Shown one piece after another: positions 6,290 to 40,825 of a DNA stretch of 64,000 nt. How positions within the stretch are numbered: the first letter of the stretch is position 1; every line of letters starts with the position of its first letter. Source of the DNA: a phage. The notes below the pieces were generated by a model that saw nothing but the letters and a program-made list of their open reading frames with translations, did not search any database and had not been told where the DNA came from. The position numbers and the translations under genes were made by a program. Location of the stretch: assembly GCA_017864995.1 (NCBI GenBank), contig GCA_017864995.1_4097.1; one strand, written 5' to 3'.

Positions 6290-8230
6290 TAGACAGGGGA
6301 AGCTCCGCAGGGAAAGCATTGGACAGGCTTTAACATATGTTATATATGTTAAAATTCAGCCTGGACAAATGCGATCACTAGGATTCTCCCCAGGCTAAAC
6401 CCCGTAATCATATGTAGTCATAAGTAATCATATATAAACATTTATATGAGCACCGTAGAATCACAGAATGATTATATATGATTCAGTACTGATTATTATA
6501 GACAAGATTACTCAAGAATGCTAGGGAAGGATTCAGTACTGCCCCAAAAGTATTCAGTACTGAAGGTGTCGATATGCCACTAAGTAGGCAGAGGAAGTCT
6601 GCCGTACTTTGTAGTTTCCAAGCTCCTTTTCCAATTTGCAAATTACATCAAATGTAATCAAAAGTAATCACGCAATGATTAGTACTGAATTATTACTTTC
6701 ACCTTAATTACAATTACCCTTTTACCCTTCGGGGTAAAATTCAATTACCCCTTGAGGCTCCAGCAAAAAGTTGGTTAGTACTCCATCCTAAATCTCGATC
6801 CTAAAAATTTTGGAGTACCTATGAAATAAAAGTTGGATCTTCGAAAGTTGAAATTTACGTTGGGACGTTTATGATTTGTGGGATATAATGATGTTTGTAG
6901 TCGGGTAGTTCTCAAGAATATCAGTACTGAAAGATGAAAGAAAGTTATTGACTTTATGATTCAGTACTGTATAATGTTCTACATAGGGTGATGAGTTGCT
7001 GCGAACAATTCATTTACTCTACCTCCTGTCGTGAGACAGTACAGAAAAGATAGTTCCTCCTGTGGTGGTGGTACATCTTTTTGAACCTCATATGAAAATC
7101 GTAATAACAGTACTGATATTAACAGAATGGTGTCAGTACTGATTTTAATCTAAAGCATTATGCCACCAGCTTGTGCTGGTGGATTCCCTCTAACAGTATT
7201 CAGTACTACATGATGGTCTTCATCCTCCTAGGGTAACATAGTGAGGGCTATGATGGCAGTACTGAATACTCCCTTTCAAAAGATAGATCTATGGTATAGT
7301 ACTGACGGATTTTGGGTGTAGTTACCCTGGATGGATTTTGGACGTAGATATGTCTAGCCCTCCAGAAGTCTGGAAGTAAAGATGGCTATCCATCTAGACG
7401 GCTAAACGGCTAGATTTCTGGATGGCTGGATGGCTAGACGTTTGGACGGCTAAACGGCTAGATGGTTACACGTCTGGAAGTATAGACGGCTAAATCAAAA
7501 TTTTATTTTGTTTTTTCCAATAGTTCCCCTACCGCGTGGGGATAGTTTCCCCGCAGTATCTGGTGTTAGATTTTTCTGAATCTGGAATCATTATCTTATA
7601 AACTGGGGGCAATGTCAACGACCTGGACGGATATTTTTAAAAATTTTTTCAGTACTGAATTTTGGGCGTAACTATGCACCCGGTGGGCTTGAGTCTTTCT
7701 CGACTTGATGGAACTATTATACAGTACTGAAAAAATAAAGCAATACCCTGGAAGCAAAAAAGTTTTAATTAATTTGCTTGCTATCCTGGGCCGGACTATG
7801 GTACTATATTTCAGTACTGAGAAAGTGCGTTTACCTGCTAGGGTGCGGGAGTGTATCCTTTTTTTATATCTTGAATTTTGGGCGTAATTCCGCACCCTCT
7901 GGGGTTTCCGCTTTCTCGCGTCTATGTAGTAATTATACGCTTTTTCAGGATCAAGTCAATACCTAAAAACAAAATAATTGAAAATAATTTAACGCGTTTA
8001 AACTGCCCGTAACGCCCTGGAATGATTGGAATGGTGCAAATGTATAGCTTAGGTGTACTAATGCGTTAGAATGCGTCTGAGGCCGTTTTACGGGGTATAG
8101 GGATGATTTAGTGGATTGATTCAGTACTGAATAATAGTACTACTATATAGAAAGATAGTTCCCCTGGATGGTTGCAGTACTGAATGATAGTTTCCCTATA
8201 TAGAAAGAAAACTATTTTAAAAGTATTTGT
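6290..8230. other. ~2 kb non-coding hub with dense palindromes and repeats
   Basis: no RBS-supported ORF; many CAGTACTG palindromes; hairpins incl. TTTTACCC-ttcg-GGGTAAAA at 6720-6739; track ORFs here rejected. Confidence 0.5.
7360..7500. repeat. iteron-like direct repeats (GGCTA core)
   Basis: about 8 copies of r-GA-y-GGCTA-r incl. ACGGCTAAACGGCTAGAT x2 and GTCTGGAAGTA-A/T-AGA-y-GGCTA x2. Confidence 0.5.
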
Positions 8231-8239
8231 AGAAAGTAC

Positions 8240-8267
8240 TTGCACCGTACTGATAAAAGCGTATAAT
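8240..8267 (+). promoter_or_regulatory. class I promoter (TTGCAC-16-TATAAT, then GTTTTACATC)
   Basis: near-consensus hexamers; same cassette recurs upstream of many genes. Confidence 0.6.
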
Positions 8268-9349: not shown

Positions 9350-9383
9350 AGTACTATCATTTTTTGCGATAGTACTTTATAAT
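9350..9383 (+). promoter_or_regulatory. class II promoter (AGTACT...AGTACT-tt-TATAAT)
   Basis: two AGTACT hexamers 21 bp apart, second abutting TATAAT; weak -35. Confidence 0.4.
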
Positions 9384-10005: not shown

Positions 10006-10252
10006 GCAGTTTACAAATCTTTACAATTGCCGGTATTGACTTATTTTGTCAGTACTGGCATAATGTATTCATTGGCAGATAAGCCGTAGCCCATAGGGTG
10101 CGGGAGTGTATCTATAGCAAAATTAGTTTAGTATAGTTACAATTGTGCACCCGGTGGGTTAGCTGTTGTCATGGGGTATATTATGCCAGTACTTGATAAT
10201 GCTGTCAATACTTTTTTACTATTCAGTACTGAAAACTATTTTTAAAAAGTAC

Positions 10253-11690: not shown

Positions 11691-11776
11691 AAAAGTACTT
11701 GCAATTAGTTTTCAGTACTGTATAATGGTTTACATCAAAGGGAGAAATGGTTCTCCCTGGTAATGAGGAAAATACA

Positions 11777-14256: not shown

Positions 14257-14275
14257 AAATATTATCACAGTACTA

Positions 14276-14304
14276 TTGACATAGTTTGATAGTACTGGCA
14301 TAAT
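14276..14304 (+). promoter_or_regulatory. class II promoter (AGTACTaTTGACA-N9-gatAGTACTGg-CATAAT)
   Basis: TTGACA-17-CATAAT flanked by two AGTACT; near-identical copies at 17116 and 25293. Confidence 0.5.
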
Positions 14305-14345: not shown

Positions 14346-14669
14346 ATGGCTAAAACTATCATTAACACCGTTTCCCTGGCTGCAATCCGTGCAATCAATG
14401 TTGACGGTAAACGTTGGACTGATTCATATGGCAATACTTATCATTCTTGTCATGTAAGCGTCGAACTGGATAACGGTTTGAATGATCTGGCGGTTGAATC
14501 ATTTACTTATGGCTATGAAGATGCATATCAACAAACGGCGTTAGATCTATTAAAGGAATCAGTAGACGGGCTTAATACTGATGAAACCTCCCTTACTCGT
14601 TTGTGCAATGATCTTAATATCCCGTTGCATTGTACTGTACATAATGTTAAACGCAAAAAAGATCTTTAA
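14346..14669 (+). CDS. hypothetical protein, paralog of 20839-21162
   Basis: shared RWTDSYGNTYHSC..FTYGY..VKRKKD with 20839 gene. Confidence 0.6.
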   Translation: MAKTIINTVSLAAIRAINVDGKRWTDSYGNTYHSCHVSVELDNGLNDLAVESFTYGYEDAYQQTALDLLKESVDGLNTDETSLTRLCNDLNIPLHCTVHNVKRKKDL

Positions 14670-15627: not shown

Positions 15628-15774
15628 ATGAAAGCATCAAAAAAGAGTAATACTAAGAAAGCACGTTCACCTTTCGCTGGGGTATTCCCTTTACGTTTCG
15701 TTGATGAAGTAGTTTCCTACCCGCCGGGCCTTACTCCTGAGATGGTAGAAAGTTTGCGTAAATCTAAAAAATAG
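15628..15774 (+). CDS. small basic protein (48 aa, below track cutoff)
   Basis: MKASKKSNTKKARSPFAG...; class I promoter plus hairpin GGGGAGAA..TTCTCCCC upstream. Confidence 0.45.
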   Translation: MKASKKSNTKKARSPFAGVFPLRFVDEVVSYPPGLTPEMVESLRKSKK

Positions 15775-15855
15775 TACTTGCAATTAGTTTTTAGTACTGT
15801 ATAATGTTTTACATGAAGGGGAGAAATGATTCTCCCCAATAACAGGAGAATCAAA

Positions 15856-16238: not shown

Positions 16239-16459
16239 AAAAAGTGGTTGACTCCGGTCAGCCATTTTGCTATTATATATTCATTGAGAGATAGCTCACT
16301 AGCCCACAGGGTGCATAAGTGTATCTATTATATAAGTATTGAGTACTGAAAACTATTTTAAAAGTATTTGTAGAAAGTACTTGCAAACTATCTCAATAAG
16401 CGTATAATGTTTTACATCGAAAGGGGAAACGGTTTCCCCTGGTAATAAGGAAACGAATC

Positions 16460-17110: not shown

Positions 17111-17193
17111 AAATATTATCACAGTACTATTGACATAGTTTGATAGTACTGACATAATAACTTTTATCAACTACACTACTAAGGAATTAAAAA

Positions 17194-17373: not shown

Positions 17374-17463
17374 AATATATTACCAGTACTATTGACAACG
17401 TTTGATAGTACTGTATAATAAGTTTTATAAACAGTAGTTAACTTAACCTAAGAGAGAAATAAA

Positions 17464-18240: not shown

Positions 18241-18498
18241 ATGGCAGTAGGATACGCGAAAGACGGGGCCGAACAAGACGAGATTAACGCAGTGATTCAG
18301 GCAGCCGTTAACCACGCTAGAAAGCAAATTAACGCACAAAGAGAATCACTGGTACATTGCCTCGACTGCGGCGATAAAATCCCTGAGAATCGACGCCAGG
18401 CCGTTATAGGGTGCATGTATTGTATTACTTGCCAGGAGGATCATGATAGTACTTTTAAAAGAGATCCGCGTAATTGTTGGCATAGATCTATGAGATAA
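18241..18498 (+). CDS. TraR/DksA-family C4 zinc-finger protein
   Basis: RKQINAQ...CLDCGDKIPENRRQAVIGCMYCITCQ matches the TraR-type C-x2-C-G-x2-IPE-x-RR...C-x2-CQ pattern. Confidence 0.7.
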   Translation: MAVGYAKDGAEQDEINAVIQAAVNHARKQINAQRESLVHCLDCGDKIPENRRQAVIGCMYCITCQEDHDSTFKRDPRNCWHRSMR

Positions 18499-18562: not shown

Positions 18563-18919
18563 ATGGGAATACAACATATCACGCGTACTACTGACAATGG
18601 CGAGATCACTGGTTATCAGGTACAGGGCAAAGTAGCACAATTGCAGTACTGGTTTGTTAAACGTGGAATCATTGCACCGGATCTTGATTATGACCGTGTA
18701 GCGTTTATTGATTCTCTTTATGTTGATCCTGATAGTCGGGGCAATGGTGAAGGTAACGAATTAATGAATGCCTTTATTGATGCCGCCGATGATTCAGATT
18801 GTATCATCTTAGAATGCGATACGGGAGAAGATAACGCCTTTAATCTTAAAGAATGGTACGAAGGTTTCGGATTCGAGGTATTGATAGATAGTGAATATCC
18901 TATCATGATTTTATCATAG
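18563..18919 (+). CDS. putative GNAT-like acetyltransferase (small)
   Basis: LYVDPDSRGNGEGNELMNAFIDAA resembles GNAT motif A (R-x-x-G-x-G/A); weak call. Confidence 0.35.
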   Translation: MGIQHITRTTDNGEITGYQVQGKVAQLQYWFVKRGIIAPDLDYDRVAFIDSLYVDPDSRGNGEGNELMNAFIDAADDSDCIILECDTGEDNAFNLKEWYEGFGFEVLIDSEYPIMILS

Positions 18920-19185: not shown

Positions 19186-19270
19186 AAAAGTACTGGACAA
19201 TAGATTATAGTACTGTATAATAGTTTACATGAAGGGGAGAAATGATTCTCCCCACTAAGAGGAAAGAAAA

Positions 19271-19889: not shown

Positions 19890-20204
19890 AAAATAATTGA
19901 AAAAGGGATTGACTCCGGTCAGTCCCTTTGCTATTATATACGCATAGAAACAAATCAGCCCACCGGGTGCATAAATGTATCTATTGTTTGCTGGTGGCTA
20001 GTACTGAAAACTATTTTTAAAAAGTACTTGCATTGTACTTATAATCAAGTATAATGTTTTACATCAGGACGGGGAACGAAATAAGTAACCCCGTTAAGTA
20101 GTCCAGGAGTAAGACATACGAAAAACTCCCCTGATAAAATAGTTTGACAATAGAAAGTAAACGAGTATAATACTTACATCAACCACTGATAAGGAAACAT
20201 AAAA

Positions 20205-21162: not shown

Positions 21163-21257
21163 TAGAATCCATTTAAAGTACTATTTGACATTGCCCAGAT
21201 AGTACTTTATAATAGACTCTAACTTGTAGTACTAACTCAACCAATAGGATGTATACC

Positions 21258-21714: not shown

Positions 21715-21969
21715 ATGATTAAGGTTCAACTATATAAAGATAACATCTTACGGGTACACTATAAAGCACCGAAGAGAATCATCACAAAGGCCGTACAGCT
21801 TGCTAATGAGTTTATTAATGGTAACCTATTACCTAGGAAGTTAAGCAACGGGAAACTGCGTGTAATCGACGTGGACACTAACAACAGGATAGTAATCGAG
21901 AACACAGGAAAGATAAACCTTTATGAGCATCAACAATACAATAAGAAAATAAAACTAATATCACGTTGA
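21715..21969 (+). CDS. hypothetical basic protein (84 aa)
   Basis: MIKVQLYKDN; RBS AGGA. Confidence 0.5.
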   Translation: MIKVQLYKDNILRVHYKAPKRIITKAVQLANEFINGNLLPRKLSNGKLRVIDVDTNNRIVIENTGKINLYEHQQYNKKIKLISR

Positions 21970-22022
21970 CAGTACTCAATTGTTTTAGTACTATGTACAC
22001 ATACCAACACGGGAGAAACAAA

Positions 22023-22241: not shown

Positions 22242-22298
22242 TTGACAGTACTCAAATGTTTTAGTACTATATGTACATACCAACACGGGGGAAACAAA

Positions 22299-23157: not shown

Positions 23158-23378
23158 AAAAGATTAAAAAAGGGATTGACTTCGGTCAGTCCCTTTGCTA
23201 TTATATATTCATTGAGAGATAACTCACTGACCCATAGGGTGCGGAAGTGTATCTATTATATAAGTATTCAGTACTGAAAACTATTTTTAAAAAAGTACTT
23301 GCATTGTACTTAGAATCAAGTATAATGTTTTATATCGAGAGGGGGAAATGGTTCTCCCTGGCAATAAGGAATAAAATC

Positions 23379-25282: not shown

Positions 25283-25358
25283 AAGTTTTATTTCAGTACT
25301 ATTGACATAGCTTGATAGTACTGATGTAATAACTTTACTAACTACAAGGGGAAACATA

Positions 25359-25616
25359 ATGGATCAGTTCACACAATATCGGGTAAATCCTCAAGCTATG
25401 GCCTACGTAGAAGACCATAAAACGTTACCAGTACTGCAACCAGTTAAAGGCCATATCTATCGTGCAATGTCGTGGTGTACGGCCCAGGATGGCTATAAAA
25501 CCGTAGCCGTTGGTATGTATTGCGGTAATGGTGAATGGTTTGATCCAAATAATCCGGTAGCCATTGACAGTACTGAAAAAATGAAATGGGCCGACTACAT
25601 CGAAGATATTTCATAA
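25359..25616 (+). CDS. hypothetical protein (85 aa)
   Basis: MDQFTQYRVNPQ; class II promoter upstream. Confidence 0.55.
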   Translation: MDQFTQYRVNPQAMAYVEDHKTLPVLQPVKGHIYRAMSWCTAQDGYKTVAVGMYCGNGEWFDPNNPVAIDSTEKMKWADYIEDIS

Positions 25617-25907: not shown

Positions 25908-26152
25908 CAAAAAAGAATAAAAAAAGGGATTGACTCCGGTCAGTCCCTTTGCTATTATATACGCATAGACAAAAACTAGCCCACAGGGTGCATAGGTGTA
26001 TCCAAAATATATAGTTAATAACGGTGAGTAACTATCTGCTGGTGGAGTGAAAACTATTAATAAAAAAGTATTGACAAAGTATATCAGTACTGCGATAATG
26101 TATCTCGTAGGGCGGCAATGGTGCGACGGCCCACAAAGTTAGGAGATTCACC

Positions 26153-27335: not shown

Positions 27336-27434
27336 ATGAATAAAAAGGGATTGGACTATGGCAAAATGCGTAGGGGGCTAAAGGGCGGGTAACCTTAGCG
27401 ACTTCGATAAAGGGGTATTACTAATAAAATGTTA

Positions 27435-27462
27435 TTGACTTTTTATACGAATCGTATATTAT
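27435..27462 (+). promoter_or_regulatory. promoter TTGACT-16-TATTAT for Fam2 array
   Basis: only clear promoter between 27250 and the first Fam2 gene. Confidence 0.5.
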
Positions 27463-27492
27463 AGGATTGATATTATTTTTAATGGAGTCCCT

Positions 27493-27690
27493 ATGCGTAT
27501 TTTAACTCAAGAAGAGCACAACCACACACTCATATCCAACATGGCATATATCCTACATATGTCACATATCCGTGGTATTGCATATAAGCGTGAATTGGTT
27601 ATGAAACTTTTCATAGGAACTAACTATCAAGAAAAGTATATCGAACTATACTTACAAGAATTACGAAGGGACATAAAAGGTAGACTATGA
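27493..27690 (+). CDS. Fam2 small protein
   Basis: motif FIGTNYQEKYI; first of tandem array. Confidence 0.55.
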   Translation: MRILTQEEHNHTLISNMAYILHMSHIRGIAYKRELVMKLFIGTNYQEKYIELYLQELRRDIKGRL

Positions 27691-27881
27691 TAATTTTAAA
27701 TAAAGAAGAATATCAAGAACTGTTACGTAAAAACTACGTAAAGATTTACAATACAGACACACACGTAGAACGAATGGAGTTATACCTTTTGATTACTTTG
27801 GGAACTAACTATCAGGAAAGATGGGTGATTCAATATATGGATACATTGAAAAATAAAATATTGTCCACGAGGAAACAATGA
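27687..27881 (+). CDS. Fam2 small protein
   Basis: ITLGTNYQERWV; ATGA overlap. Confidence 0.55.
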   Translation: MIILNKEEYQELLRKNYVKIYNTDTHVERMELYLLITLGTNYQERWVIQYMDTLKNKILSTRKQ

Positions 27882-28087
27882 AAACTATAACACGAACCCA
27901 ATCATTCGGTCTTATCTTGAAATACATGGACTTAATGTTTGATATCAGCAAAGACCTTTCTAAAACTGAAATCCAAGTTGCAAGAGCAGAGATCCGCATG
28001 TTGGCTGTACTGAACACAAACCATCAGGAAGAGTATGTTGACGATTGGATTCATTTTTTAATAGAAGATATTAAGAGTAAACTATGA
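27878..28087 (+). CDS. Fam2 small protein
   Basis: AVLNTNHQEEYV. Confidence 0.55.
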   Translation: MKTITRTQSFGLILKYMDLMFDISKDLSKTEIQVARAEIRMLAVLNTNHQEEYVDDWIHFLIEDIKSKL

Positions 28088-28296
28088 TTTTTTTAACACC
28101 AGAAGAATATAAGATACGTTTTGTTTCTGTCCAGAATAAAATCTTAATTATATACAATTCAAATGCAGACCTTAACTTATCAAGGGTATTAGAAAAAGAT
28201 TTACTTATGGGTGCATTTTTGGATACAGACTTTCAGGAGTATTATGTAGGGGAATACTTAATTGCACTCCAGAATTACATTAAGAGTAAACTATGA
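28084..28296 (+). CDS. Fam2 small protein
   Basis: GAFLDTDFQEYYV. Confidence 0.55.
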   Translation: MIFLTPEEYKIRFVSVQNKILIIYNSNADLNLSRVLEKDLLMGAFLDTDFQEYYVGEYLIALQNYIKSKL

Positions 28297-28505
28297 ATAG
28301 CATTAACTCAAATCTATATACCGAACGCGTCGCTGCAAGACAACTTGAAATTCTCATAGTATATGAAGAGACTGATGATTTAAACTTAGCATTAGTATTG
28401 GAAAATGATATACTATTGGGTGCATTCCTCGGCACAGATTATCAGGAGCACTTCTTGAATGAGTATATAATTGCACTCCAGAAATACATTAAGAGCAAAC
28501 TATGA
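28293..28505 (+). CDS. Fam2 small protein
   Basis: GAFLGTDYQEHFL; close paralog of 28084. Confidence 0.55.
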   Translation: MNSINSNLYTERVAARQLEILIVYEETDDLNLALVLENDILLGAFLGTDYQEHFLNEYIIALQKYIKSKL

Positions 28506-28720
28506 AACATTTAAGTAATTCCGAGAAGAATAAAATTATCATTGCTGCAATAAACAAATATTTTACACTTCCTCACACAGAAGGTTTATGTGTAAGGGAA
28601 CACAGGATAAACACCACCGATATACGCATGATGGCTGTACTGGGGACGAACTTTCAGGAAGAGTATGTTGTTGCACACATAGTTGCCCTCACTGATCTAA
28701 TAAGGGACAAATGTAAATGA
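28502..28720 (+). CDS. Fam2 small protein
   Basis: AVLGTNFQEEYV. Confidence 0.55.
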   Translation: MKHLSNSEKNKIIIAAINKYFTLPHTEGLCVREHRINTTDIRMMAVLGTNFQEEYVVAHIVALTDLIRDKCK

Positions 28721-28974
28721 AACACTTAACTGATGATGAATTTGAAACTATAATTCGTAAACTAACCCCCATCACAAGGATAGTCTACGGTGACCCCAGC
28801 CTTACATGGAACCAAATGCGAGCTAAAGTTAATGAGCTATGGTTGCTGTACTTTATGGGGACTCAATATCAAGATAAGTTTTGCACAGAATATATCGAAC
28901 AATTAACGAATGTTATACAGGATAAACTAGATGATTATTTGCTCACAAAACATGAAGACTTTATCAGGAGTTGA
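28717..28974 (+). CDS. Fam2 small protein
   Basis: YFMGTQYQDKFC. Confidence 0.55.
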   Translation: MKHLTDDEFETIIRKLTPITRIVYGDPSLTWNQMRAKVNELWLLYFMGTQYQDKFCTEYIEQLTNVIQDKLDDYLLTKHEDFIRS

Positions 28975-29203
28975 GTATCAAACTGCCCTATTCTCTTTAA
29001 TCCATGCCCTTAGAAAAAACAATGCCTTATATGGTGCACCTGAAGTGGATGTTATCAACGGTGAACTTTATCTTATGAAATTCATTGGAACAAACTATCA
29101 AGATCTGTTCATTCAACGATACTTATCAGCATTAAGAAACCAAATCCAATATAAAACCATCAAGGCAAAAAAAGAATGGAATAAACAATGCGACACAGAC
29201 TAA
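28931..29203 (+). CDS. Fam2 small protein
   Basis: KFIGTNYQDLFI; alternative start at 28952. Confidence 0.5.
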   Translation: MIICSQNMKTLSGVEYQTALFSLIHALRKNNALYGAPEVDVINGELYLMKFIGTNYQDLFIQRYLSALRNQIQYKTIKAKKEWNKQCDTD

Positions 29204-29439
29204 ATCACAAAATGTATTGTAAACTATTGCAGACACTGGCACAGAAACACTATGACACGGTATCTGGAATATTACCCTATGATATCATGCGTTTACTTCA
29301 CTGTGAGGCCGAGATGCTTGTACTGATGACAGGCACAGATAAAAAAGCAATTGCCAAATCAATAGATATGTTCATCGAAGCACAATGTCAACACATTAGA
29401 ACCGAGATATGGAGGCGAGAGAATGATAACACTAAATGA
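29188..29439 (+). CDS. Fam2-like small protein (degenerate motif)
   Basis: LMTGTDKKAI in motif position. Confidence 0.45.
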   Translation: MRHRLNHKMYCKLLQTLAQKHYDTVSGILPYDIMRLLHCEAEMLVLMTGTDKKAIAKSIDMFIEAQCQHIRTEIWRRENDNTK

Positions 29440-29638
29440 GTATCAGTATCATTGGAGGTTACAAGCTATAAGAAGGAAAGTTGTTAGTATTTCTTTAGAC
29501 AAGTCTATTGCACAAGAGGACAAATGTGTTATAATAGCTGAAATGAAGTTGGGTGCTTTCGTAGGAACAAACTATCAAAACATCTACACTGACGTATTGT
29601 TAAGTGCCTTACGTAACAAGGTGATATCAAAAGAATGA
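29423..29638 (+). CDS. Fam2 small protein
   Basis: AFVGTNYQNIYT. Confidence 0.55.
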   Translation: MITLNEYQYHWRLQAIRRKVVSISLDKSIAQEDKCVIIAEMKLGAFVGTNYQNIYTDVLLSALRNKVISKE

Positions 29639-29853
29639 GAAAATTACAAGGCTTTGAATACATCAGACTCCTGAAAACATGTGCCAACAGAAGAGTAAAG
29701 ATTCAATCTGATAAGAGCATCCCTGCCAACCTAAAACATGCATTGATAGCTGAACTCTATGCAGGGGCACTCATAGGGACAAACTATCAACAAATGTATA
29801 TAGACATGTGGGTTGATGCATTAGTCAAGGAGGTCAAAAGTAAATGCAAATGA
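29635..29853 (+). CDS. Fam2 small protein
   Basis: ALIGTNYQQMYI. Confidence 0.55.
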   Translation: MRKLQGFEYIRLLKTCANRRVKIQSDKSIPANLKHALIAELYAGALIGTNYQQMYIDMWVDALVKEVKSKCK

Positions 29854-30062
29854 TTAATTTAAGTAAAGATGAATATTATGAACGTCTTGCAAAAACTTAT
29901 CCAGCACGTAACGCCGTTTATAATAGTAACATTATTGAACGCTCAAAGAAGTTGATTGTAGTAAATGAGATTAAGATGCTTTCAGTCTTAGGAACAAACT
30001 ATCAAGAGAATGCTGTACTGTTGTTAATTGATGCCCTCAAGAGAGAGATACAAAGTAAATGA
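29844..30062 (+). CDS. Fam2 small protein
   Basis: SVLGTNYQENAV; N-term MQMINLSKDEY. Confidence 0.55.
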   Translation: MQMINLSKDEYYERLAKTYPARNAVYNSNIIERSKKLIVVNEIKMLSVLGTNYQENAVLLLIDALKREIQSK

Positions 30063-30307
30063 TTAATTTATCTTTCCATGAATATCAAAAACGTTTAAAT
30101 GCATCAAGGGATATAAGGATTCAAATCTTTAATAACAAAAGATTGAAACCTGACACCAGAAGAATCAAAATAATAGAAGCAGAGTTATGCAACTTCCTGG
30201 GGACGAACCATCAGGAAGGTAAGATAAAAAACTATCTTAGAGAACTCATGATTTGTATCGAAAATAAATGTGAGGTTGATGAACATGCAAATGATCAATT
30301 TAAGTAA
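30059..30307 (+). CDS. Fam2 small protein
   Basis: NFLGTNHQEGKI. Confidence 0.55.
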   Translation: MINLSFHEYQKRLNASRDIRIQIFNNKRLKPDTRRIKIIEAELCNFLGTNHQEGKIKNYLRELMICIENKCEVDEHANDQFK

Positions 30308-30548
30308 AGATGAATATACCGAGCGTATGACAAAAATTACACACAAACGTAATACAATCTATCACGACCAAAAAATTCAACACAGTAAGAAAATGATTAT
30401 GATGCGTGAGTTAAAGATGGGTGTATTCTTGGGAACAAACTATCAAGAGCCAGAAGTAAATCGCTTAATCGCGGAGTTACTACTGGAAATCAGAGGTAAG
30501 CTGTACTTTCATCAAATGACCCAACCACTGAGGTGTACTGATCGATGA
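30285..30548 (+). CDS. Fam2 small protein
   Basis: VFLGTNYQEPEV; start MQMINLSKDEY as in 29844 gene (track 30270). Confidence 0.5.
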   Translation: MQMINLSKDEYTERMTKITHKRNTIYHDQKIQHSKKMIMMRELKMGVFLGTNYQEPEVNRLIAELLLEIRGKLYFHQMTQPLRCTDR

Positions 30549-30796
30549 ATGCGATGAATAAAATTAATAACATCAGAATAGCAGAAAGATTTGATAGACT
30601 TGGGGAAGCTCTGAGACGATACGATAAGGAATATGGTCATTTGAGCTTTTCTATAGAAAAGAGATATGAACTTGAAGCAGAGTTTAAAATGCAGTTCCTT
30701 TTAGGTACACAGTATCAAAACCAATATGTAGAAAAATGGATTTCACTTTTAATCCAGACAATTTACGTAAGGAACATTAAATGCAAAATGAAATGA
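30545..30796 (+). CDS. Fam2 small protein
   Basis: FLLGTQYQNQYV. Confidence 0.55.
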   Translation: MNAMNKINNIRIAERFDRLGEALRRYDKEYGHLSFSIEKRYELEAEFKMQFLLGTQYQNQYVEKWISLLIQTIYVRNIKCKMK

Positions 30797-31017
30797 TATA
30801 CTTAACACATGATGAGTTAACAGAAAGACTAGATAAATCCAAAAAACTTACAAAATATCTTCCACACAACCCAAACCAAACCCCAGCAGAAAGGAGTGCA
30901 GAAGTTTTATTTCATCAACTATCATACCTTCTTGGAACTGATAGACAAGAGTATCACATTGAACGTATAATTAAATATCTTAAAATTACTATTATGGAAA
31001 AAGTAAATGCAAAGTGA
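30781..31017 (+). CDS. Fam2 small protein
   Basis: YLLGTDRQEYHI; N-term MQNEMIYLTHDE. Confidence 0.55.
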   Translation: MQNEMIYLTHDELTERLDKSKKLTKYLPHNPNQTPAERSAEVLFHQLSYLLGTDRQEYHIERIIKYLKITIMEKVNAK

Positions 31018-31237
31018 AATGATATACTTAACGAATGAAGAATTTCAAGAGAAGATGTTAAAAGCCAATAACATTACTCTTAAGTTCGTTCCAAATCAAT
31101 CAATATATGAAATGTCTGCGAATGTATTGTTTCAGAAGCTACCATACGTTCTTGGAACTGATAAACAAGAATTTATGGTTCAAAATATGATTGAACATCT
31201 TGTAATGAGTATTAAGGAAAAAGTAAATGCAAAATGA
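31007..31237 (+). CDS. Fam2 small protein
   Basis: YVLGTDKQEFMV; N-term MQSEMIYLTNEE. Confidence 0.55.
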   Translation: MQSEMIYLTNEEFQEKMLKANNITLKFVPNQSIYEMSANVLFQKLPYVLGTDKQEFMVQNMIEHLVMSIKEKVNAK

Positions 31238-31484
31238 AATGAAATACTTAACAGACGATGAGTTAAAAGAACGATTAATTAAATCCAGAAAACTTACAAA
31301 TCAACTTCCAAACGACACAAACAAGTCACATGCCGAAAGGAGTGCAGAAGTTTTATACATTCAACTCCTGTACTTTCTTGGAACTGACAGACAAGAGTAT
31401 TACATTGAAAGTATGCTTCGATATCTTAAATTCTCTATAAAGGAAAAGATACATGCTCAAGAATTTAAAAATCCTAACAGTTAA
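31227..31484 (+). CDS. Fam2 small protein
   Basis: YFLGTDRQEYYI; N-term MQNEMKYLTDDE. Confidence 0.55.
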   Translation: MQNEMKYLTDDELKERLIKSRKLTNQLPNDTNKSHAERSAEVLYIQLLYFLGTDRQEYYIESMLRYLKFSIKEKIHAQEFKNPNS

Positions 31485-31695
31485 TGAATATCATAAGATT
31501 GTAATGAAAACTAATAGTGCAATTTCTAAAAAATCAAACCCAAAGTACATACTGGAACACACATTTGAAGAACGTCAATTAGCTTTAGTTGAAGCAAAAC
31601 TTCTTGCACTCCTAGGAACAAACTACCAAGAAGAATACATCAGAAAACTAATATACCTTTTAACTAAACACATCAGGAAAAGAAAAAAAGCATGA
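31453..31695 (+). CDS. Fam2 small protein
   Basis: ALLGTNYQEEYI. Confidence 0.55.
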   Translation: MLKNLKILTVNEYHKIVMKTNSAISKKSNPKYILEHTFEERQLALVEAKLLALLGTNYQEEYIRKLIYLLTKHIRKRKKA

Positions 31696-31922
31696 AGCAC
31701 TTGACAGATGATGAACATGGGCTTATAGTAATGGATGTAATCAACATCGAATACAAAAAGTTGATACGCTACCGTTGTTATGAAGATAAGCAACTCGTTC
31801 TAGCAGAACAGAAGTTGTTTCGACTCTTAAACACAAACTTCCAAGCACAATACGAAGAATCGTATATGTACCTTTTGGCGAGGAAAGCAAAAAGAGATTA
31901 TGAAAATTTTAAACCACAGTGA
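31692..31922 (+). CDS. Fam2 small protein
   Basis: RLLNTNFQAQYE. Confidence 0.5.
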   Translation: MKHLTDDEHGLIVMDVINIEYKKLIRYRCYEDKQLVLAEQKLFRLLNTNFQAQYEESYMYLLARKAKRDYENFKPQ

Positions 31923-32115
31923 ACAAACAGAATTGTTAATCTTTAATACAAGTAAATTCTTAAACATAACATTGTCTGATATAGATGAGGATGAAAAAGA
32001 GTTACTTAGAGCAGATTTAAGAGTTCTTTTATATGTTGGAACTAACTTCCAAGAGCAATTCGTTGAGGACTACATCGATGAACTTAAAGAATCTGTACTG
32101 AGAACATGCAAATGA
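31900..32115 (+). CDS. Fam2 small protein
   Basis: LYVGTNFQEQFV. Confidence 0.55.
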   Translation: MKILNHSEQTELLIFNTSKFLNITLSDIDEDEKELLRADLRVLLYVGTNFQEQFVEDYIDELKESVLRTCK

Positions 32116-32321
32116 AAATCCTTTCACCAAGTGAATACCACGAACTATTAAGTAGTTTAATTCTAAAATTGTATATAGCAAAGACCACAGATTTACCTGA
32201 TGAAGAAAAAAATATTCTAATGAGTGAAATCTATGTTCAAGCTACCCTAGGGACTAACTATCAAGAATGTAATATTAATGATTACATCAAAGAACTAAAA
32301 AGGTTTATCCAATGCAAATGA
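32106..32321 (+). CDS. Fam2 small protein
   Basis: ATLGTNYQECNI. Confidence 0.55.
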   Translation: MQMKILSPSEYHELLSSLILKLYIAKTTDLPDEEKNILMSEIYVQATLGTNYQECNINDYIKELKRFIQCK

Positions 32322-32563
32322 AAATCATTACCGAAGCAGAATACCTAACAATCATAAATGGACTGTTTTCGAAGTTATTTGCCATTAACACATCAAAACT
32401 TCCAGATACTGATAAAATTATTAAGTTAAATGAAATCTACGTTCAAGCAACTCTAGGAACAAACTATCAAGAAGCCAATGTGTATAATTACATTAATACA
32501 CTCAAAAGGGTAATACAATTAAAATGCACAGACAGCACAAACAGCCAATACACAAACCCCTAG
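32312..32563 (+). CDS. Fam2 small protein
   Basis: ATLGTNYQEANV; close paralog of 32106. Confidence 0.55.
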   Translation: MQMKIITEAEYLTIINGLFSKLFAINTSKLPDTDKIIKLNEIYVQATLGTNYQEANVYNYINTLKRVIQLKCTDSTNSQYTNP

Positions 32564-32763
32564 GAACAGCAGAATACATTGAACTAATGGCTGCAAACTT
32601 CTCATCCTTTAAGAAACTGATGCAAGAATCAAATAATGATTTAGAATATCATATCAAAAGTTCAGATTTAAGATTACTACTCACTCTAGGAACAGACAGT
32701 CAGTACAAATTCGTACAGGAACATATTAGAGCACTTTTAAATGGCATCAGGGATAAACTATGA
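32524..32763 (+). CDS. Fam2 small protein
   Basis: LTLGTDSQYKFV. Confidence 0.5.
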   Translation: MHRQHKQPIHKPLGTAEYIELMAANFSSFKKLMQESNNDLEYHIKSSDLRLLLTLGTDSQYKFVQEHIRALLNGIRDKL

Positions 32764-32975: not shown

Positions 32976-33193
32976 GAATCATAACACAACAAGATATTCT
33001 TAAGTTCACAAGGGTTCATGCATCTGAATTTGATGCTATATTATCAAAAAGTTACAACAACCCTTATACAGAAGATGTACACTACAATGAATTATGGATG
33101 TATATACTTTTAGGTACAGATCATCAAGAGCAAGCAGTACAGAAGTATTTGTTAGCTTTACGTGATGCTACTGCTAATGGAGTACGTGTTTAA
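32972..33193 (+). CDS. Fam2 small protein
   Basis: ILLGTDHQEQAV. Confidence 0.55.
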   Translation: MRIITQQDILKFTRVHASEFDAILSKSYNNPYTEDVHYNELWMYILLGTDHQEQAVQKYLLALRDATANGVRV

Positions 33194-33194
33194 T

Positions 33195-33446
33195 ATGAAA
33201 GTACTGACAGAACTAGAAATGTATCATAGATTTAATAAGTACTATCATTTACTTAAGCCTATACAGAGAATTAAATGTCCATTTGAAGAGAAACAGGTTT
33301 TAATCTATGAGCACAAGTTCTTTGTATCATTAGGTACAGATCAACAAGAGTACTATTTGACGTTGTACTTGATTACATTAATAGATTTCATTCACTATAA
33401 AACCACACAATCTAAACAAGCTAAGAAAGAGCAATATGAAAACTAA
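33195..33446 (+). CDS. Fam2 small protein
   Basis: VSLGTDQQEYYL; start MKVLTELEMY (track 33162). Confidence 0.5.
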   Translation: MKVLTELEMYHRFNKYYHLLKPIQRIKCPFEEKQVLIYEHKFFVSLGTDQQEYYLTLYLITLIDFIHYKTTQSKQAKKEQYEN

Positions 33447-33774
33447 TATAAAACTCAAGGTATATAAATCATTTGCAAGTACATACATCAAATGCCATAC
33501 ATGTAACTCTGTAATGGACTACAAAGGTAAGCCATTTGCACTTACTTATGATAATACAAGAGGTTTTTATATATCTTTTGCTGATTACAAATATAACATA
33601 TACGAACACATTGACATTGAAGATTTAAGTACTTTATCCGAAGAGGAATACTTTCAAGAATCATTAGTATGGGATTTGGAGTTTCCTATGCCATTAGTAC
33701 ATAAGATGATAGTACTAATAAAAGAAACTAAACCTGTACCTAATGGTTATGAAGAACACATTATTGAGTATTAA
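33436..33774 (+). CDS. Fam3 protein (E-E-x-Y-F-Q motif family)
   Basis: motif LSEEEYFQESLVWD; N-term MKTNIKLKVY. Confidence 0.6.
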   Translation: MKTNIKLKVYKSFASTYIKCHTCNSVMDYKGKPFALTYDNTRGFYISFADYKYNIYEHIDIEDLSTLSEEEYFQESLVWDLEFPMPLVHKMIVLIKETKPVPNGYEEHIIEY

Positions 33775-33788
33775 TATATAAGGTAACT

Positions 33789-34130
33789 ATGAAAACTAAT
33801 ATACAACTCAATGTATACAGTTCAGAAGAACATACATATATCAAATGTAGTCTATGTAAAGATGTAATGGACTACAAAGGTAAGCCATTCACAATTACCT
33901 ATGATTCTGATGTTAATGATTTATATATATCATTTCTTAATTACGAAAATAAAATATACAAGCACGTTGATATTAAAGATTTAAGTACTTTATCACCAGA
34001 GGAATACTTTCAGGAATCGTTAGTATGGGATTTGGAGTTTCCTATGTCATTAGTACATAAAATGGTAGTCCAAATGAAAGAAGCTAAACCAGAGTTTAAC
34101 GGTTATGAAGAACACACAATTGAGTATTAA
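33789..34130 (+). CDS. Fam3 protein
   Basis: SPEEYFQESLVWD; close paralog of 33436. Confidence 0.6.
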   Translation: MKTNIQLNVYSSEEHTYIKCSLCKDVMDYKGKPFTITYDSDVNDLYISFLNYENKIYKHVDIKDLSTLSPEEYFQESLVWDLEFPMSLVHKMVVQMKEAKPEFNGYEEHTIEY

Positions 34131-34133
34131 ACC

Positions 34134-34349
34134 ATGAAAAGATTATCATACGAAGATTATCGCAAGATTCGCGGTATGTTGCGACCAGAAATTCAAAGAA
34201 TTAATTCACTTCCTATATCTAATGCAGAATGTTCAGTACTGAAAGATGAGTTAATATTAAAACACACAGTAGGAACTAACTATCAAGCTGATAGTGTTCG
34301 ATATCTAATTTGGGGATTAATATGCATAATAAAGTCCAGACAAGCTTGA
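34134..34349 (+). CDS. Fam2 small protein (dispersed copy)
   Basis: HTVGTNYQADSV. Confidence 0.5.
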   Translation: MKRLSYEDYRKIRGMLRPEIQRINSLPISNAECSVLKDELILKHTVGTNYQADSVRYLIWGLICIIKSRQA

Positions 34350-34374
34350 CAGTACTTTTCATTACTGATATAGT
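34346..34374 (+). promoter_or_regulatory. promoter TTGACA-17-TGaTATAGT
   Basis: extended -10; upstream of 34404 ORF. Confidence 0.5.
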
Positions 34375-34403
34375 ACCTGTACGTTAATCATGGGGTAAAA
34401 ATT

Positions 34404-34649
34404 ATGTTGAATTTTTTAAATTTCCTTATCGTCTTGTGTATTGTTCTTGGGATTGCACCATTTGTATTGTATTTCATGGAGTCCGATGAAATGCAAAAGA
34501 TGAATTGCACAAGGACAGGACAGAGTAGAGAAGAGACGATTCTTATGCCTGTTACCGTTATTGTTAATAATATGCCCATTACAAACATGGTCCCTACCCT
34601 AACGACAACGTACCAGTACTCTTGTACAGACGGAGAGAGGTGGAGATAA
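34404..34649 (+). CDS. small membrane protein (N-terminal TM helix)
   Basis: MLNFLNFLIVLCIVLGIAPFVLYF hydrophobic segment; own promoter. Confidence 0.45.
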   Translation: MLNFLNFLIVLCIVLGIAPFVLYFMESDEMQKMNCTRTGQSREETILMPVTVIVNNMPITNMVPTLTTTYQYSCTDGERWR

Positions 34650-34972
34650 TGCGTAAGTTCAATTGTATTGTACGTAAGAATTCATGTTACATTGTAGTAG
34701 CTGATTTTAATACAGGTTCTGGGTTGAAGATATTTGAGTACAGAAAATGCAATAATTCTTTTCATTGGAAATTGGGTGCAAGAAAAGCAAAAACAATTTC
34801 AGTACCGAATTTATGTTCTATCTCTGAAGAAGAAGAGTTTCAGTACTTGTTAGTACATGATGATTCTTTAGGATTTACATTCGAAGACATGAAGGAAGTA
34901 CAAAAGCAGATGATTGCACATTGTCATCTTCCAAAGAATTTTGTTCAACACGTATGTGAATTCTACATATAA
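34649..34972 (+). CDS. Fam3 protein
   Basis: SEEEEFQYLLVHDD; start MRKFNCIV after RBS GAGAGAGGTGGAG (track 34622). Confidence 0.55.
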   Translation: MRKFNCIVRKNSCYIVVADFNTGSGLKIFEYRKCNNSFHWKLGARKAKTISVPNLCSISEEEEFQYLLVHDDSLGFTFEDMKEVQKQMIAHCHLPKNFVQHVCEFYI

Positions 34973-34981
34973 GAGAAGAAT

Positions 34982-35293
34982 ATGAAATTTAATATAGCAA
35001 AAACATCGAGTATATGTATTTTTGGTTATGCAGAAGAGTTAGGTGATATTGACATTCTTTTGTACAAAAAAGATGGTGTTATGCATTTCAAGTACCAGGA
35101 TGAAGAGGCAGACAATTATCTTTTACCTAATTTAGTACAAATGCAGGAAGAGGAATTATTCCAGTACAGCTTAATATACGACATTGATATTTGCACGATG
35201 CCAGTATTAATTAGTATTCAAAAAGTGATGCTCGATATGTATGATAAGCTAATACAAGGTATGTCAGGGAGGATCATTGAAATCGATATATAA
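34982..35293 (+). CDS. Fam3 protein
   Basis: QEEELFQYSLIYD. Confidence 0.55.
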   Translation: MKFNIAKTSSICIFGYAEELGDIDILLYKKDGVMHFKYQDEEADNYLLPNLVQMQEEELFQYSLIYDIDICTMPVLISIQKVMLDMYDKLIQGMSGRIIEIDI

Positions 35294-35312
35294 GAATATA
35301 CCTAATGCATAT

Positions 35313-35489
35313 ATGTTGAAGTACAAAGAGTTTATTAAAGATGTATATGTAGATCCTTTCAATATAAAATTATCAGAGTTCGAAGTATCATTTTATCTAG
35401 GGACAATAGTACAGGATCAATACGTTGATAATCTAATAAGGTGCATGAAAAAGGAGATACAATGCAGACCCAAAGGTATAAAAAGATAG
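35313..35489 (+). CDS. Fam2-like small protein
   Basis: FYLGTIVQDQYV; track start 35277 is TTG, ATG at 35313 preferred. Confidence 0.4.
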   Translation: MLKYKEFIKDVYVDPFNIKLSEFEVSFYLGTIVQDQYVDNLIRCMKKEIQCRPKGIKR

Positions 35490-35725
35490 ATGCTTATTTG
35501 TATGCTTCAAAGTACAGGGATTTTTGTTTACGAGGGGGAGAGGAAGATTTCGCTCTGAGATTATCTGAATTTAATATGTTATTTTATCTTGGTACAAAAG
35601 AACAAGAAGATACAGTACAGAAATTTCTCAATCATCTTGTACAAAAAATTAATATGCAAATTTTGATGCATAAGTTACAGAATGAGATAAATGAATATGA
35701 ATCCAGAAATAGTTCAGGATCTTAA
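35462..35725 (+). CDS. Fam2-like small protein
   Basis: FYLGTKEQEDTV; start MQTQRYKK after RBS AAGGAGA (track 35441 is GTG). Confidence 0.45.
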   Translation: MQTQRYKKIDAYLYASKYRDFCLRGGEEDFALRLSEFNMLFYLGTKEQEDTVQKFLNHLVQKINMQILMHKLQNEINEYESRNSSGS

Positions 35726-36101
35726 AAAAGTAATATTTCTTTTGAATACAAGAAGCTCTTTATATAAGGAGTTCAAGGATATTAAAACATCGTGTAATAT
35801 AGATTTTTTTGAAACCATACATGCGGAGTTTCGTGATTTAATTGCAGATGCATTGTTTGAATTTTCCGAGAAATATCAAGGTACAGTCTTCGGTGTTAAG
35901 AATGTTCTTCGTCCAAGTACAGGTACAAGGAAGATTGAGTTATCACATTTTACAATTGGTAACAACGATTTATTCAGTTATAACCCCAGTACATCTTTAT
36001 ATTTTATTCCTGTTTCAGACAAAAATCATCCTATTCATTACGGATGGATTATATCTTATACAATAAATGGAACGGAGTATCCTATTAAATGGCACGATTA
36101 G
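35691..36101 (+). CDS. hypothetical protein (136 aa)
   Basis: MNMNPEIVQDLK; no family motif. Confidence 0.5.
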   Translation: MNMNPEIVQDLKKVIFLLNTRSSLYKEFKDIKTSCNIDFFETIHAEFRDLIADALFEFSEKYQGTVFGVKNVLRPSTGTRKIELSHFTIGNNDLFSYNPSTSLYFIPVSDKNHPIHYGWIISYTINGTEYPIKWHD

Positions 36102-36240
36102 GGTGTGAAGATTATAATATGAATATATTATTAAGAAATATTAATGCAGATTATTGTGTATGGGTTAAGAATAGAGATATGATGTATTATGATTTTTATT
36201 TAGATTGTGCCATTAAGCGTTTTTTAAGAGAAGAACATTA

Positions 36241-36423
36241 ATGAAAACCGTTAATACAAAAGCAATAAATGATTTAAATGATTCTTTATTAGTAAGTATC
36301 AAGATGTATTACAATATACATTTAAAGGGTGGTATAGATAATTACAATTATTATCTTTCATTAGTTACAATAGAACATTTAAATTATATAGATCAGTTAT
36401 TACATCCAAATCCACCAAATTAA
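36241..36423 (+). CDS. hypothetical protein (60 aa)
   Basis: MKTVNTKAINDL; no motif. Confidence 0.4.
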   Translation: MKTVNTKAINDLNDSLLVSIKMYYNIHLKGGIDNYNYYLSLVTIEHLNYIDQLLHPNPPN

Positions 36424-36434
36424 GGAATACCAAT

Positions 36435-36995
36435 ATGAATGATATTGAGTTATTGGTACATAAGATTTGCACAATATCGTTAGTGCTGAACAATGCGAAT
36501 ACAGTACAGAGTTCCCTTTTAAGAATTAATAAAGTTGGGAGTAGTTTATATTTGGAAGTAAAAGCTGGTTTTGCAGGACAGTACAATGATAAAATCAAAG
36601 AAGAAGTTAAGGGAAATGAAGATGCTTACATTGAGGTTTGTGCAACAGTTGGTTCAAATCCAATTTCAGTATCACCTTTAATGCGAAATGAAAATCCAGA
36701 ATTTGATTCCAGTTTTGAAGGTTATTTGTGGTACAATTATGGTGATGATTATTTTATATATCAGAATTCCAAAACGGATTATAGTGAAGAAGGTATAAAA
36801 TTCATTGATCCTTACAATGAAGCAGAAGTATTTCAGACATCCCTAATATACAATACAAATCAAATGAAGTATCTTATGTTGTTTAGTACAATGCATTTGA
36901 ATCCATTGAAAGATAATTTAAAATTTTTCATTCGTTTAGAATTAGTTGATATTGCTTATGATCTTTTAATGCAAGGATATAGTTATGAAGTATAA
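36435..36995 (+). CDS. Fam3 protein
   Basis: NEAEVFQTSLIYN; C-term DLLMQGYSYEV shared with 37072 gene. Confidence 0.6.
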   Translation: MNDIELLVHKICTISLVLNNANTVQSSLLRINKVGSSLYLEVKAGFAGQYNDKIKEEVKGNEDAYIEVCATVGSNPISVSPLMRNENPEFDSSFEGYLWYNYGDDYFIYQNSKTDYSEEGIKFIDPYNEAEVFQTSLIYNTNQMKYLMLFSTMHLNPLKDNLKFFIRLELVDIAYDLLMQGYSYEV

Positions 36996-37065
36996 AATGC
37001 TTTATACAAAAGATATGATTTATGTTGAATTAGAAGACAATGACGATGTATCCATCAATAGGTAA
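36985..37065 (+). pseudogene. truncated remnant of MKYKxLYT..IYVELE-type Fam3 gene
   Basis: 26-aa ORF MKYKMLYTKDMIYVELEDNDD matches N-termini of 37568 and 37885 genes, then stops. Confidence 0.35.
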
Positions 37066-37071
37066 TAATAT

Positions 37072-37578: not shown

Positions 37579-37879
37579 AATTCTTTATACATTAACATTA
37601 ATATATGTAGAATTAGAATCCGATTCAGATGCATGGAATTTGGTTAAAGAGGTCGATACCAATCAATGGTACATGGCAAATTTAGACGAACATGTTGTTA
37701 CGGATTATTTTATAGATTTTAATACATTATCTGAAGAAGAATTTTTCCAAATGCAATTGGTGGTTGACATGTACGGACATGACATGGTAACATTAAGAAA
37801 TATACAGAAAGTCGTTAATGAATTCCAAAGCAAGAAAGATTATGAGGTAGGAGCGTATTATGACATCGACGTACAGTGA
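37568..37879 (+). CDS. Fam3 protein
   Basis: SEEEFFQMQLVVD; N-term MKYKILYTLTLIYVELE. Confidence 0.6.
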   Translation: MKYKILYTLTLIYVELESDSDAWNLVKEVDTNQWYMANLDEHVVTDYFIDFNTLSEEEFFQMQLVVDMYGHDMVTLRNIQKVVNEFQSKKDYEVGAYYDIDVQ

Positions 37880-37884
37880 AAGCA

Positions 37885-39571: not shown

Positions 39572-39589
39572 GATATGGGCTTTTTTTGT

Positions 39590-39618: not shown

Positions 39619-39643
39619 GTGTAATCATTTTAAGGAGATACCT

Positions 39644-40824: not shown

Positions 40825-40825
40825 T

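Follow-up and report, generated by a model that had tools for sequence, protein, structure and literature searches.

The early promoters of the large coliphages (T4, T5 and T7 A1-A3 type) are of the sigma-70 kind. They share a TTGACA hexamer at -35, a spacer of 16-17 bp, a TATAAT or CATAAT hexamer at -10 and A/T-rich DNA upstream, with UP-like A-tracts and in some cases an extended -10, and they stand one before each small early gene, as do the promoters described here. In T5 the terminal repeat is the DNA that enters the cell first, a likeness to the early region analysed below. Phage factors that read short boxes near the -35 hexamer are known from lambda, where the CII sites (TTGC-N6-TTGC) lie around the -35 of PRE on the DNA face opposite the polymerase, and from T4, where the MotA box, (a/t)(a/t)TGCTT(t/c)A, is centred at -30 and replaces the -35 hexamer. 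On a larger scale, phi29 p6 (with p4) and SPO1 TF1 are abundant DNA-binding proteins that coat the phage genome and repress or switch early promoters. A highly iterated palindrome, HIP1 (GCGATCGC), is found in cyanobacteria and is, to our knowledge, not known as a positioned promoter element.

In this work we focused on a stretch of phage DNA of 64,000 nucleotides (the window), in which the hexamer AGTACT recurs on both sides of the -35 hexamer of sigma-70-like promoters. Transcription control in the RaK2, 121Q and GAP32 jumbo phages is essentially unstudied. In the literature that we searched, no paper joined AGTACT with jumbo phages, the mentions of AGTACT in two methylation papers were unrelated, and promoters with paired boxes were not described. 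For CBB, the published promoters are plain RpoD-like ones, with no paired-box promoter in the excerpts searched from the supplementary tables, and the papers on RaK2, fEgEco12, Sharanji and phAPEC6 do not discuss promoters. The GenBank record of GAP32 labels three of the sites treated here merely as TTGACA(N15-17)TATAAT promoters.

A 5-kb slice around the site at position 14269 gave matches of 98% to Escherichia phage fEgEco12 and of 90-97% to the 121Q/PBECO4 group, whose genus is Asteriusvirus and whose genomes measure about 350 kb, and by these nucleotide matches we assign the window to an Asteriusvirus (121Q/PBECO4-like) jumbo coliphage. The direct terminal repeat of fEgEco12 measures 20,993 bp (PMC13070987). 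Mapping of the window on the fEgEco12 record placed the start of this repeat at about 6.4-6.9 kb and its end near 27.4 kb. The interval 6400-27400 (plus strand) holds some 38-45 sigma-70-like promoters with a small gene behind each, and this stretch of one promoter per small gene coincides exactly with the mapped terminal repeat, which is likely to be the first DNA to enter the cell. Most of its promoters bear AGTACT next to the -35 hexamer, within the spacer, or at both places. A search for RNA genes in the promoter field found no tRNA and no Rfam family.

Several other features of this region were recorded. At its boundary, which is the physical genome end in fEgEco12, lies a non-coding stretch of 1.9 kb (6300-8250) that gave no tRNA or Rfam family match. 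It contains 13 CAGTACTG sites, some of which (e.g. 8119-8132) are lengthened to ATTCAGTACTGAAT, and, at about 7390-7490, an iteron-like run of about 13 eight-base units (GGATGGCT, AGACGGCT or AAACGGCT). Between 8700 and 26600 most -10 hexamers are followed by a conserved initial transcribed sequence, (G)TTTTACATC, and then by a GGGGAG...CTCCCC leader hairpin. The module of -10 hexamer and leader is about 90% identical to that of phAPEC8-like phages, and whole cassettes are common to rV5-like and Justusliebigvirus phages, so that promoter-leader cassettes appear to be swapped between families of large coliphages. Two early genes, at 18241-18495 and 18563-18916, encode a DksA/TraR-type C4 zinc-finger protein and a GNAT acetyltransferase; the former is likely to bind the secondary channel of the polymerase, which hints at direct manipulation of the host RNA polymerase. 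Just beyond the terminal repeat (27400-32700) some 24 paralogous genes, each for 65-90 amino acids, overlap one another in tandem, with no AGTACT, no enrichment of GTAC and nine copies of TGTACT.

The site at 14269-14304 (plus strand) reads AGTACT-A-TTGACA-TAGTTTGAT-AGTACT-GG-CATAAT. Two AGTACT boxes, at 14269-14274 and 14291-14296, bracket the -35 hexamer TTGACA (14276-14281), and the second box provides the T of a TG (14296-14297) that precedes the -10 hexamer CATAAT (14299-14304). From 14276 to 14304, 11 of the 12 hexamer positions match the sigma-70 consensus across a spacer of 17 bp. The site is a member of a conserved family of strong sigma-70-type early promoters, and it is predicted to drive the ORF at 14346-14669, which follows on the same strand. 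Three further strong copies lie on the plus strand. The one at 17123-17158 (AGTACT 17123-17128 and 17145-17150, TTGACA 17130-17135, CATAAT 17153-17158) has boxes and hexamers identical to those at 14269, the base between TG and CATAAT being A where it is G at 14269. The copy at 17385-17419 (AGTACT 17385-17390 and 17407-17412, TTGACA 17392-17397, TATAAT 17414-17419) has a 16-bp spacer and matches the consensus at 12 of 12 positions (17392-17419). At 25295-25330 (AGTACT 25295-25300 and 25317-25322, TTGACA 25302-25307) the -10 hexamer, TGTAAT at 25325-25330, is weakened by the loss of the key A at position 2; a plus-strand ORF (25359-25616) again lies downstream. The four strong copies share their flanks from about -55 to +12, and an A-rich tract lies ahead of the upstream box. 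Looser paired forms, also on the plus strand, were found at 21177-21213 (AGTACT 21177-21182 and 21201-21206, TTGACA 21185-21190, TATAAT 21208-21213, no TG) and at 9350-9383 (AGTACT 9350-9355 and 9371-9376, TATAAT 9378-9383), the latter with a -35 hexamer that is not recognisable. A search of the window with the composite pattern, allowing up to three mismatches, returned 14269 and 17123 (none), 25295 (two) and a relative on the minus strand at 10180-10215, while 100 dinucleotide-preserving shuffles gave 0 matches.

A sequence-only reading of the same DNA had already listed this recurrence at six places, and all six are borne out. Its positions 14269 and 9350 were right, and the other four needed shifts of 2-9 bases (17114 to 17123, 17383 to 17385, 25293 to 25295 and 21173 to 21177). 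The box spacing of 21-22 bp that it gave describes the four strong copies (22 bp) and the pair at 9350/9371 (21 bp) but not the pair at 21177/21201, which is 24 bp apart. Similarly, the TG that it derived from the second hexamer is present at -15/-14 in the copies at 14269, 17123 and 25295, whereas at 17385 the TG abuts TATAAT and at 9350 and 21177 the sequence is AGTACT-T-TATAAT. The proposal of a separate second promoter class gives way to a more modular picture, in which the composite is one combination of two box positions. Each position also occurs singly, as in the minus-strand promoter at 10180-10215 (TTGACA-N9-AGTACT-GG-CATAAT), where the place of the upstream box reads AAAAGT. Both positions occur together in another register, 20 bp apart, at 11694-11726 and 15773-15805 (each AGTAC-TTGCAA-N9-AGTACT-G-TATAAT) and at 19189-19221 (AGTAC-TGGACA-N9-AGTACT-G-TATAAT), all on the plus strand; the design of the last is also found in RaK2 (L019, position 4913).

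Two other arrangements were seen. At 21966-21994 and 22242-22270 the order is TTGAC-AGTACT-N10-AG-TACTAT, with the two AGTACT hexamers 16 bp apart, the first overlapping the end of the -35 hexamer and the second forming the -10 itself (TACTAT). A recurrent terminator hairpin, AAAGGGATTGACTCCGGTCAGTCCCTTT, whose 12-bp stem includes TTGACT, lies at 16241-16276, 19902-19937, 23169-23204 and 25923-25958 and is followed 17 bp further on by TATTAT, which joins a terminator and a promoter-like site in one module; modules of this design were also found in RaK2, GAP32 and the 366-kb contig.

The registers of the boxes were counted over a census of 140 unique promoters from five phages, picked solely on their match to TTGACA, a spacer of 16-18 bp and TATAAT. 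The terminal repeat of the window supplied some of them; RaK2, GAP32, CBB-like contigs and a 366-kb contig supplied the others from their early regions. Counted from the base with which the -35 hexamer begins, the upstream AGTACT started at -5 (45), -6 (6), -7 (7) or -8 (1) in 59 promoters and the spacer AGTACT at +15 (28) or +16 (23) in 51 promoters; every other start from -60 to +69 was used at most three times in the 140 promoters, against a background of about 0.85 per position. The upstream box therefore ends right before the -35 hexamer or shares one base with it (about -42 to -36), and the spacer box begins 9-10 nt past the -35 hexamer and ends 1-2 nt short of the -10 hexamer (about -20 to -14), so that both palindromes lie over polymerase contacts. 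From +6 to +18, in the spacer and at its 3' edge, AGTACT started 56 times, 51 of them at +15 or +16. The offsets +6 to +14 are nearly unused in an otherwise free spacer, and a passive explanation by which the word sits wherever it fits therefore fails. The window by itself has the box at one and the same register in at least nine spacers of unrelated sequence. The distance from box to box varies (20-24 bp) but that from each box to its neighbouring hexamer is held within 1-3 bp, and the boxes thus appear to be anchored to the -35 and the -10 separately. Both boxes were present in 35 promoters, the upstream box alone in 23, the spacer box alone in 15 and neither in 66 (odds ratio 6.7, p = 8e-7), counts that are inflated by paralogy and not fully independent, since many of the promoters are paralogous copies.

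Selective constraint was evaluated by aligning the box-bearing promoters of the window to orthologous 121Q DNA, at about 90% identity. The AGTACT boxes had a substitution rate of 1.8% (3/168), close to those of the -35 (1.5%) and -10 (1.4%) hexamers, as compared with 9.3% for the rest of the spacer (p = 0.0013) and 4.9% for the ten non-box bases upstream. Over all intergenic DNA, 3 of 342 AGTACT positions had changed versus 560 of 6093 others (p = 2e-10). Inside the genes of the terminal repeat, the hexamers were not individually conserved (12.5%, against 10.9% for their surroundings), and intragenic copies further along were protected about 2.4-fold. By this comparison the word exists in two tiers, the promoter copies being conserved individually and the dispersed copies kept as a density.

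Counted over the window as a whole, AGTACT is the most over-represented hexamer (281 copies, about 19-21 expected), with its highest density in the terminal repeat, and CAGTACTG occurs 64 times against 0.7 expected. Its flanks are symmetric, with C favoured at -1 and G at +1 in coding and non-coding DNA alike. The genic copies are spread over the reading frames (64/45/73), and synonymous codons are chosen in favour of the word: AGT-ACT encodes Ser-Thr in 66 of 108 cases (14.5 expected), GTA-CTn encodes Val-Leu in 88 of 133 (33 expected), and for Tyr flanked as nAG-Tyr-Tnn there are 43 TAC and nine TAT codons. The use of all three frames together with these biased choices argues that selection acts on the DNA word itself and not on the protein. 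Pairs of AGTACT have a sole preferred spacing, 20-24 bp (20 pairs, against a background of about 1.2 per bp), a peak seen in the early DNA of both the window and GAP32 but missing from a non-early RaK2 region. A wrapping or filament-forming protein, which would show as helical periodicity, was considered and rejected, as there were no 10.5-bp harmonics and the promoter spacing alone stood out.

Enrichment in relatives was counted on 50-kb genome slices. AGTACT was over-represented in RaK2 (119 versus 17 expected), in GAP32 (253 versus 17), in CBB-like contigs and in the 366-kb metagenomic contig, and to a lower degree in the core replication and structural genes of 121Q (76 versus 16.7). No enrichment was found in rV5-like phages (7 versus 13) or in the related Pseudomonas jumbo phage PA5oct (positions 1-50000; 4 versus 17), and the PA5oct counts rule out a host-independent trait of the wider phage family. 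PA5oct has over-represented words of its own, TTGCAT and TTTGCA (about 60 versus 16 expected), and these could be a motif associated with its promoters. In a single 50-kb sample of Escherichia coli K-12 (1,000,001-1,050,000; L031) AGTACT occurred 3 times, with 11.6 expected, and judged by this one sample the densities of the phage terminal repeat and of host DNA lie about 100-fold apart.

One block of the window departs from this pattern. Positions 33000-44000 have zero AGTACT, 0-1 copies of TGTACT and about 45-55 copies of AGTACA, all on the plus (sense) strand, in all frames (16/15/12) and with the same c...g flanks. Since 121Q has the block too (L028, 12500-17500; AGTACA 29, AGTACT 0, TGTACT 0), errors of sequencing are not the cause, and AGTACA resembles a directional form of the iterated word.

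Genome-wide selection of AGTACT for a non-transcriptional function has to be weighed against these data. The word could serve as a methylation or 'self' mark, as a site for the phage type II topoisomerase or in the protection of the first-entering DNA, and its promoter copies would then be by-products or methylation-sensitive switches. Such a function would account for the enrichment in coding DNA in all frames, which extends to core genes of 121Q and RaK2, for the density peak in the terminal repeat and for the separation of phage from host DNA, and a Dam-type N6-adenine methyltransferase (PF05869) is conserved in 121Q and GAP32. A passenger, however, should fall anywhere in the spacer, and not at +15 and +16 almost exclusively. 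Moreover, the conservation of boxes between genes is about tenfold that of the DNA around them, which does not hold for the intragenic ones of the terminal repeat, and methylation alone does not explain the over-representation. We regard this explanation as unlikely, if still the strongest of the rivals.

The paired design is common to at least four genera whose spacers are unrelated in sequence. RaK2 has AGTACT-A-TTGACA-N9-AGTACT-G(C/G)-TATAAT, GAP32 and the CBB-like contigs have AGTACT-TTGACA-N10-AGTACT-T-TATAAT and also AGTAC-TTGCAA/TTGCTA/TTTACT-N10-AGTACT-T-TATAAT, and the 366-kb contig has AGTACT-C-TTGACA-N10-AGTACT-T-TATAAT. Among promoters with a spacer box, the paired form made up 8 of 10 in GAP32 and 13 of 15 in the CBB-like contigs. 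When 12 paired promoters from five phage groups were aligned, the two hexamers were invariant and the spacers differed, an invariance subject to ascertainment bias because the promoters had been chosen for their boxes. In some genera the boxes are more constant than the -35 hexamer, which appears as TTGCAA, TTGCTA, TTTACT or TGGACA. The TG at -15/-14 that marks an extended -10 is absent from the paired promoters of GAP32 and the CBB-like contigs in which a single base separates box and -10 (AGTACT-T/A-TATAAT); as no G follows the second box there, the conserved element is AGTACT, and the TG is a lineage-specific bonus. Sharp registers, co-occurrence of the boxes, constraint against 121Q and presence in at least four genera together uphold the earlier suggestion that the palindrome is tied to promoter architecture.

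Promoters without boxes are instructive as well. Within the same region of the window there are box-free consensus promoters (-10 hexamers starting at 10393, 12897 and 20166). Homologous promoter cassettes were found in rV5-like phages (Vequintavirinae: A7_1, W70) and in a Justusliebigvirus (JLBYU50), all of which are unenriched for AGTACT. In some of these cassettes the boxes have decayed (AGCGCT...AGTGCT, TGTGCT...AGTACA, or AGTAGT upstream) while the -35, the -10 and the initial transcribed sequence are retained; one rV5-like lineage (A7_1, W70) has both boxes intact in one cassette. Judged from this small sample of cassettes, the boxes are probably not needed for a working sigma-70 promoter. 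The relaxed constraint outside the clade argues that the host polymerase alone does not account for the boxes, which would depend on a feature peculiar to the AGTACT-rich phages.

These cassettes bear on a second explanation, by which the boxes are intrinsic elements read by the host RNA polymerase with no extra factor, the upstream box being an extended -35 or proximal UP subsite and the spacer box an extended -10 (TG) or a favourable spacer. The registers do fall on polymerase contact zones, constraint on the boxes matches that on the -35 and -10 hexamers, and an A-rich tract lies in front of the upstream box; the strongest copies of Asteriusvirus and RaK2 have a canonical TGn extended -10 by a weaker CATAAT, and the unenriched rV5-like lineage retains both boxes. 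On the other hand, the promoters of GAP32, CBB and the 366-kb contig lack the TG, homologous cassettes of unenriched phages lose the boxes and retain -35 and -10, box-free consensus promoters stand in the same region, and the 13-fold enrichment of the hexamer elsewhere, in all reading frames, is left unexplained. We hold it somewhat more doubtful than the genome-wide function. Copying and pasting of one promoter cassette in a repeat-rich region, with hexamers devoid of meaning, is scarcely credible: the shared flanks of the four strong copies and the clear passage of promoter cassettes between phage families fit it, but it is already contradicted by the register census, with its unrelated spacers and the same registers in four other phage groups, and by the substitution analysis, in which the boxes are constrained but the remaining spacer is not.

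In the reading that we favour, with a probability of roughly 0.45, the boxes would serve as operator-like sites to which a clade-specific factor binds through the symmetric AGTACT; the existence of this factor, the genome that encodes it and the sign of its effect are what we infer from the sequence comparisons. The boxes would be cis-elements in their own right, read by a putative dimeric DNA-binding factor with specificity for AGTACT or CAGTACTG. This factor would be particular to the RaK2-like phages of enterobacteria, and would also recognise the other copies of the word that are spread through these genomes. Bound on either side of the -35 hexamer, it would control the host RNA polymerase at early promoters. 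Placed at about -40 and -18, the boxes stand on either side of the -35 and would touch the zones of sigma region 4/alpha-CTD and of sigma region 3, and their occupancy would most simply block initiation, i.e. shut off the early promoters. As these promoters are close to consensus to begin with, we consider it more likely that the factor would shut early transcription off. The centres of the boxes lie about half a helical turn from that of the -35 hexamer, so that factor and polymerase might occupy the promoter together from opposite faces of the DNA, in the manner of lambda CII. Of the two roles put forward in the sequence-only reading, an operator or a recognition element for a modified RNA polymerase, either may apply.

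Several observations count against operator-like sites. A spacing range of 20-24 bp is unusual for strictly cooperative binding, the hundreds of other sites in the 64-kb window would titrate out a classical low-copy repressor, and the rV5-like lineage keeps both boxes in one cassette. As the intragenic copies of the terminal repeat are not conserved, the genome-wide and the promoter copies may serve different ends. A Pfam scan of the 150 ORFs of the window detected no helix-turn-helix or other DNA-binding domain, and returned the DksA/TraR zinc finger, GNAT, a ParE-like domain, RCC1 repeats and some DUFs. A broader and more speculative version, which we consider unlikely, takes AGTACT as a clade-wide cis-code, by which a phage protein would both mark the genome as 'self' and time early transcription through the two boxes. 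The mark might recruit or retain the host RNA polymerase or protect the entering DNA, and the strand-specific AGTACA of the conserved 10-kb block might be a second, directional dialect.

Host proteins were also considered as readers of the word. The SlmA-binding sequence of E. coli, GTGAGTACTCAC, is built around AGTACT, and in this 12-bp palindrome SlmA needs GT as the first two bases, a purine as the third and AG at positions 4-5 (PMC3020112). SlmA is a protein of enteric bacteria, which are the hosts of all the enriched phages. The phage sites differ in having C where SlmA needs a purine, G being depleted there. SlmA was rejected, as the window has no GTRAGYRCTYAC or similar 12-mer of SlmA-binding type, GT precedes 7 of the 281 copies and G stands at -1 in 9%. 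A LexA (SOS) box, brought to mind by a resemblance to TACTGTATA, was likewise discarded, there being no CTGT-N8-ACAG in the window.

A promoter element that is constrained like the -35 and -10 hexamers and made of the most over-represented hexamer of the genome regions sampled gives a concrete handle on how these phages switch off their early genes or tell their own DNA from that of the host. The boxes also offer a simple sequence signature for the annotation of early promoters and terminal-repeat regions in the clade.

Compared with known systems, the sites combine features that are otherwise met separately. HIP1 and AGTACT are both palindromes over-represented more than 10-fold, in coding and non-coding DNA (for AGTACT independently of the frame), which points to selection or bias on the DNA itself; HIP1 belongs to cellular genomes, whereas AGTACT is found in phages and has sharp promoter registers. 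The two tiers of the word recall phi29 p6 and SPO1 TF1, which join a genome-wide ligand to position-specific effects at early promoters, but p6 and TF1 read no short exact palindrome, and the factor proposed here is putative. With lambda CII and T4 MotA the promoters would share a phage factor that reads short boxes placed relative to the -35 hexamer, in lambda on both of its sides. The CII and MotA promoters have a poor or absent -35 and non-palindromic boxes, while the -35 is often consensus here, and AGTACT matches neither in box sequence nor in spacing. A MotA-dependent middle promoter is rejected, since these promoters have a -35 hexamer, at a spacing of 16-17 bp, and their boxes read AGTACT and stand near -40 and -18. 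We know of no described sigma-70, alpha-CTD or extended -10 consensus to which the AGTACT boxes belong. Unlike the early promoters of T4, T5 and T7 type, those of this clade have two AGTACT boxes at fixed registers, and they are best described as phage early sigma-70 promoters with built-in operator-like boxes, which only sometimes also have an extended -10.
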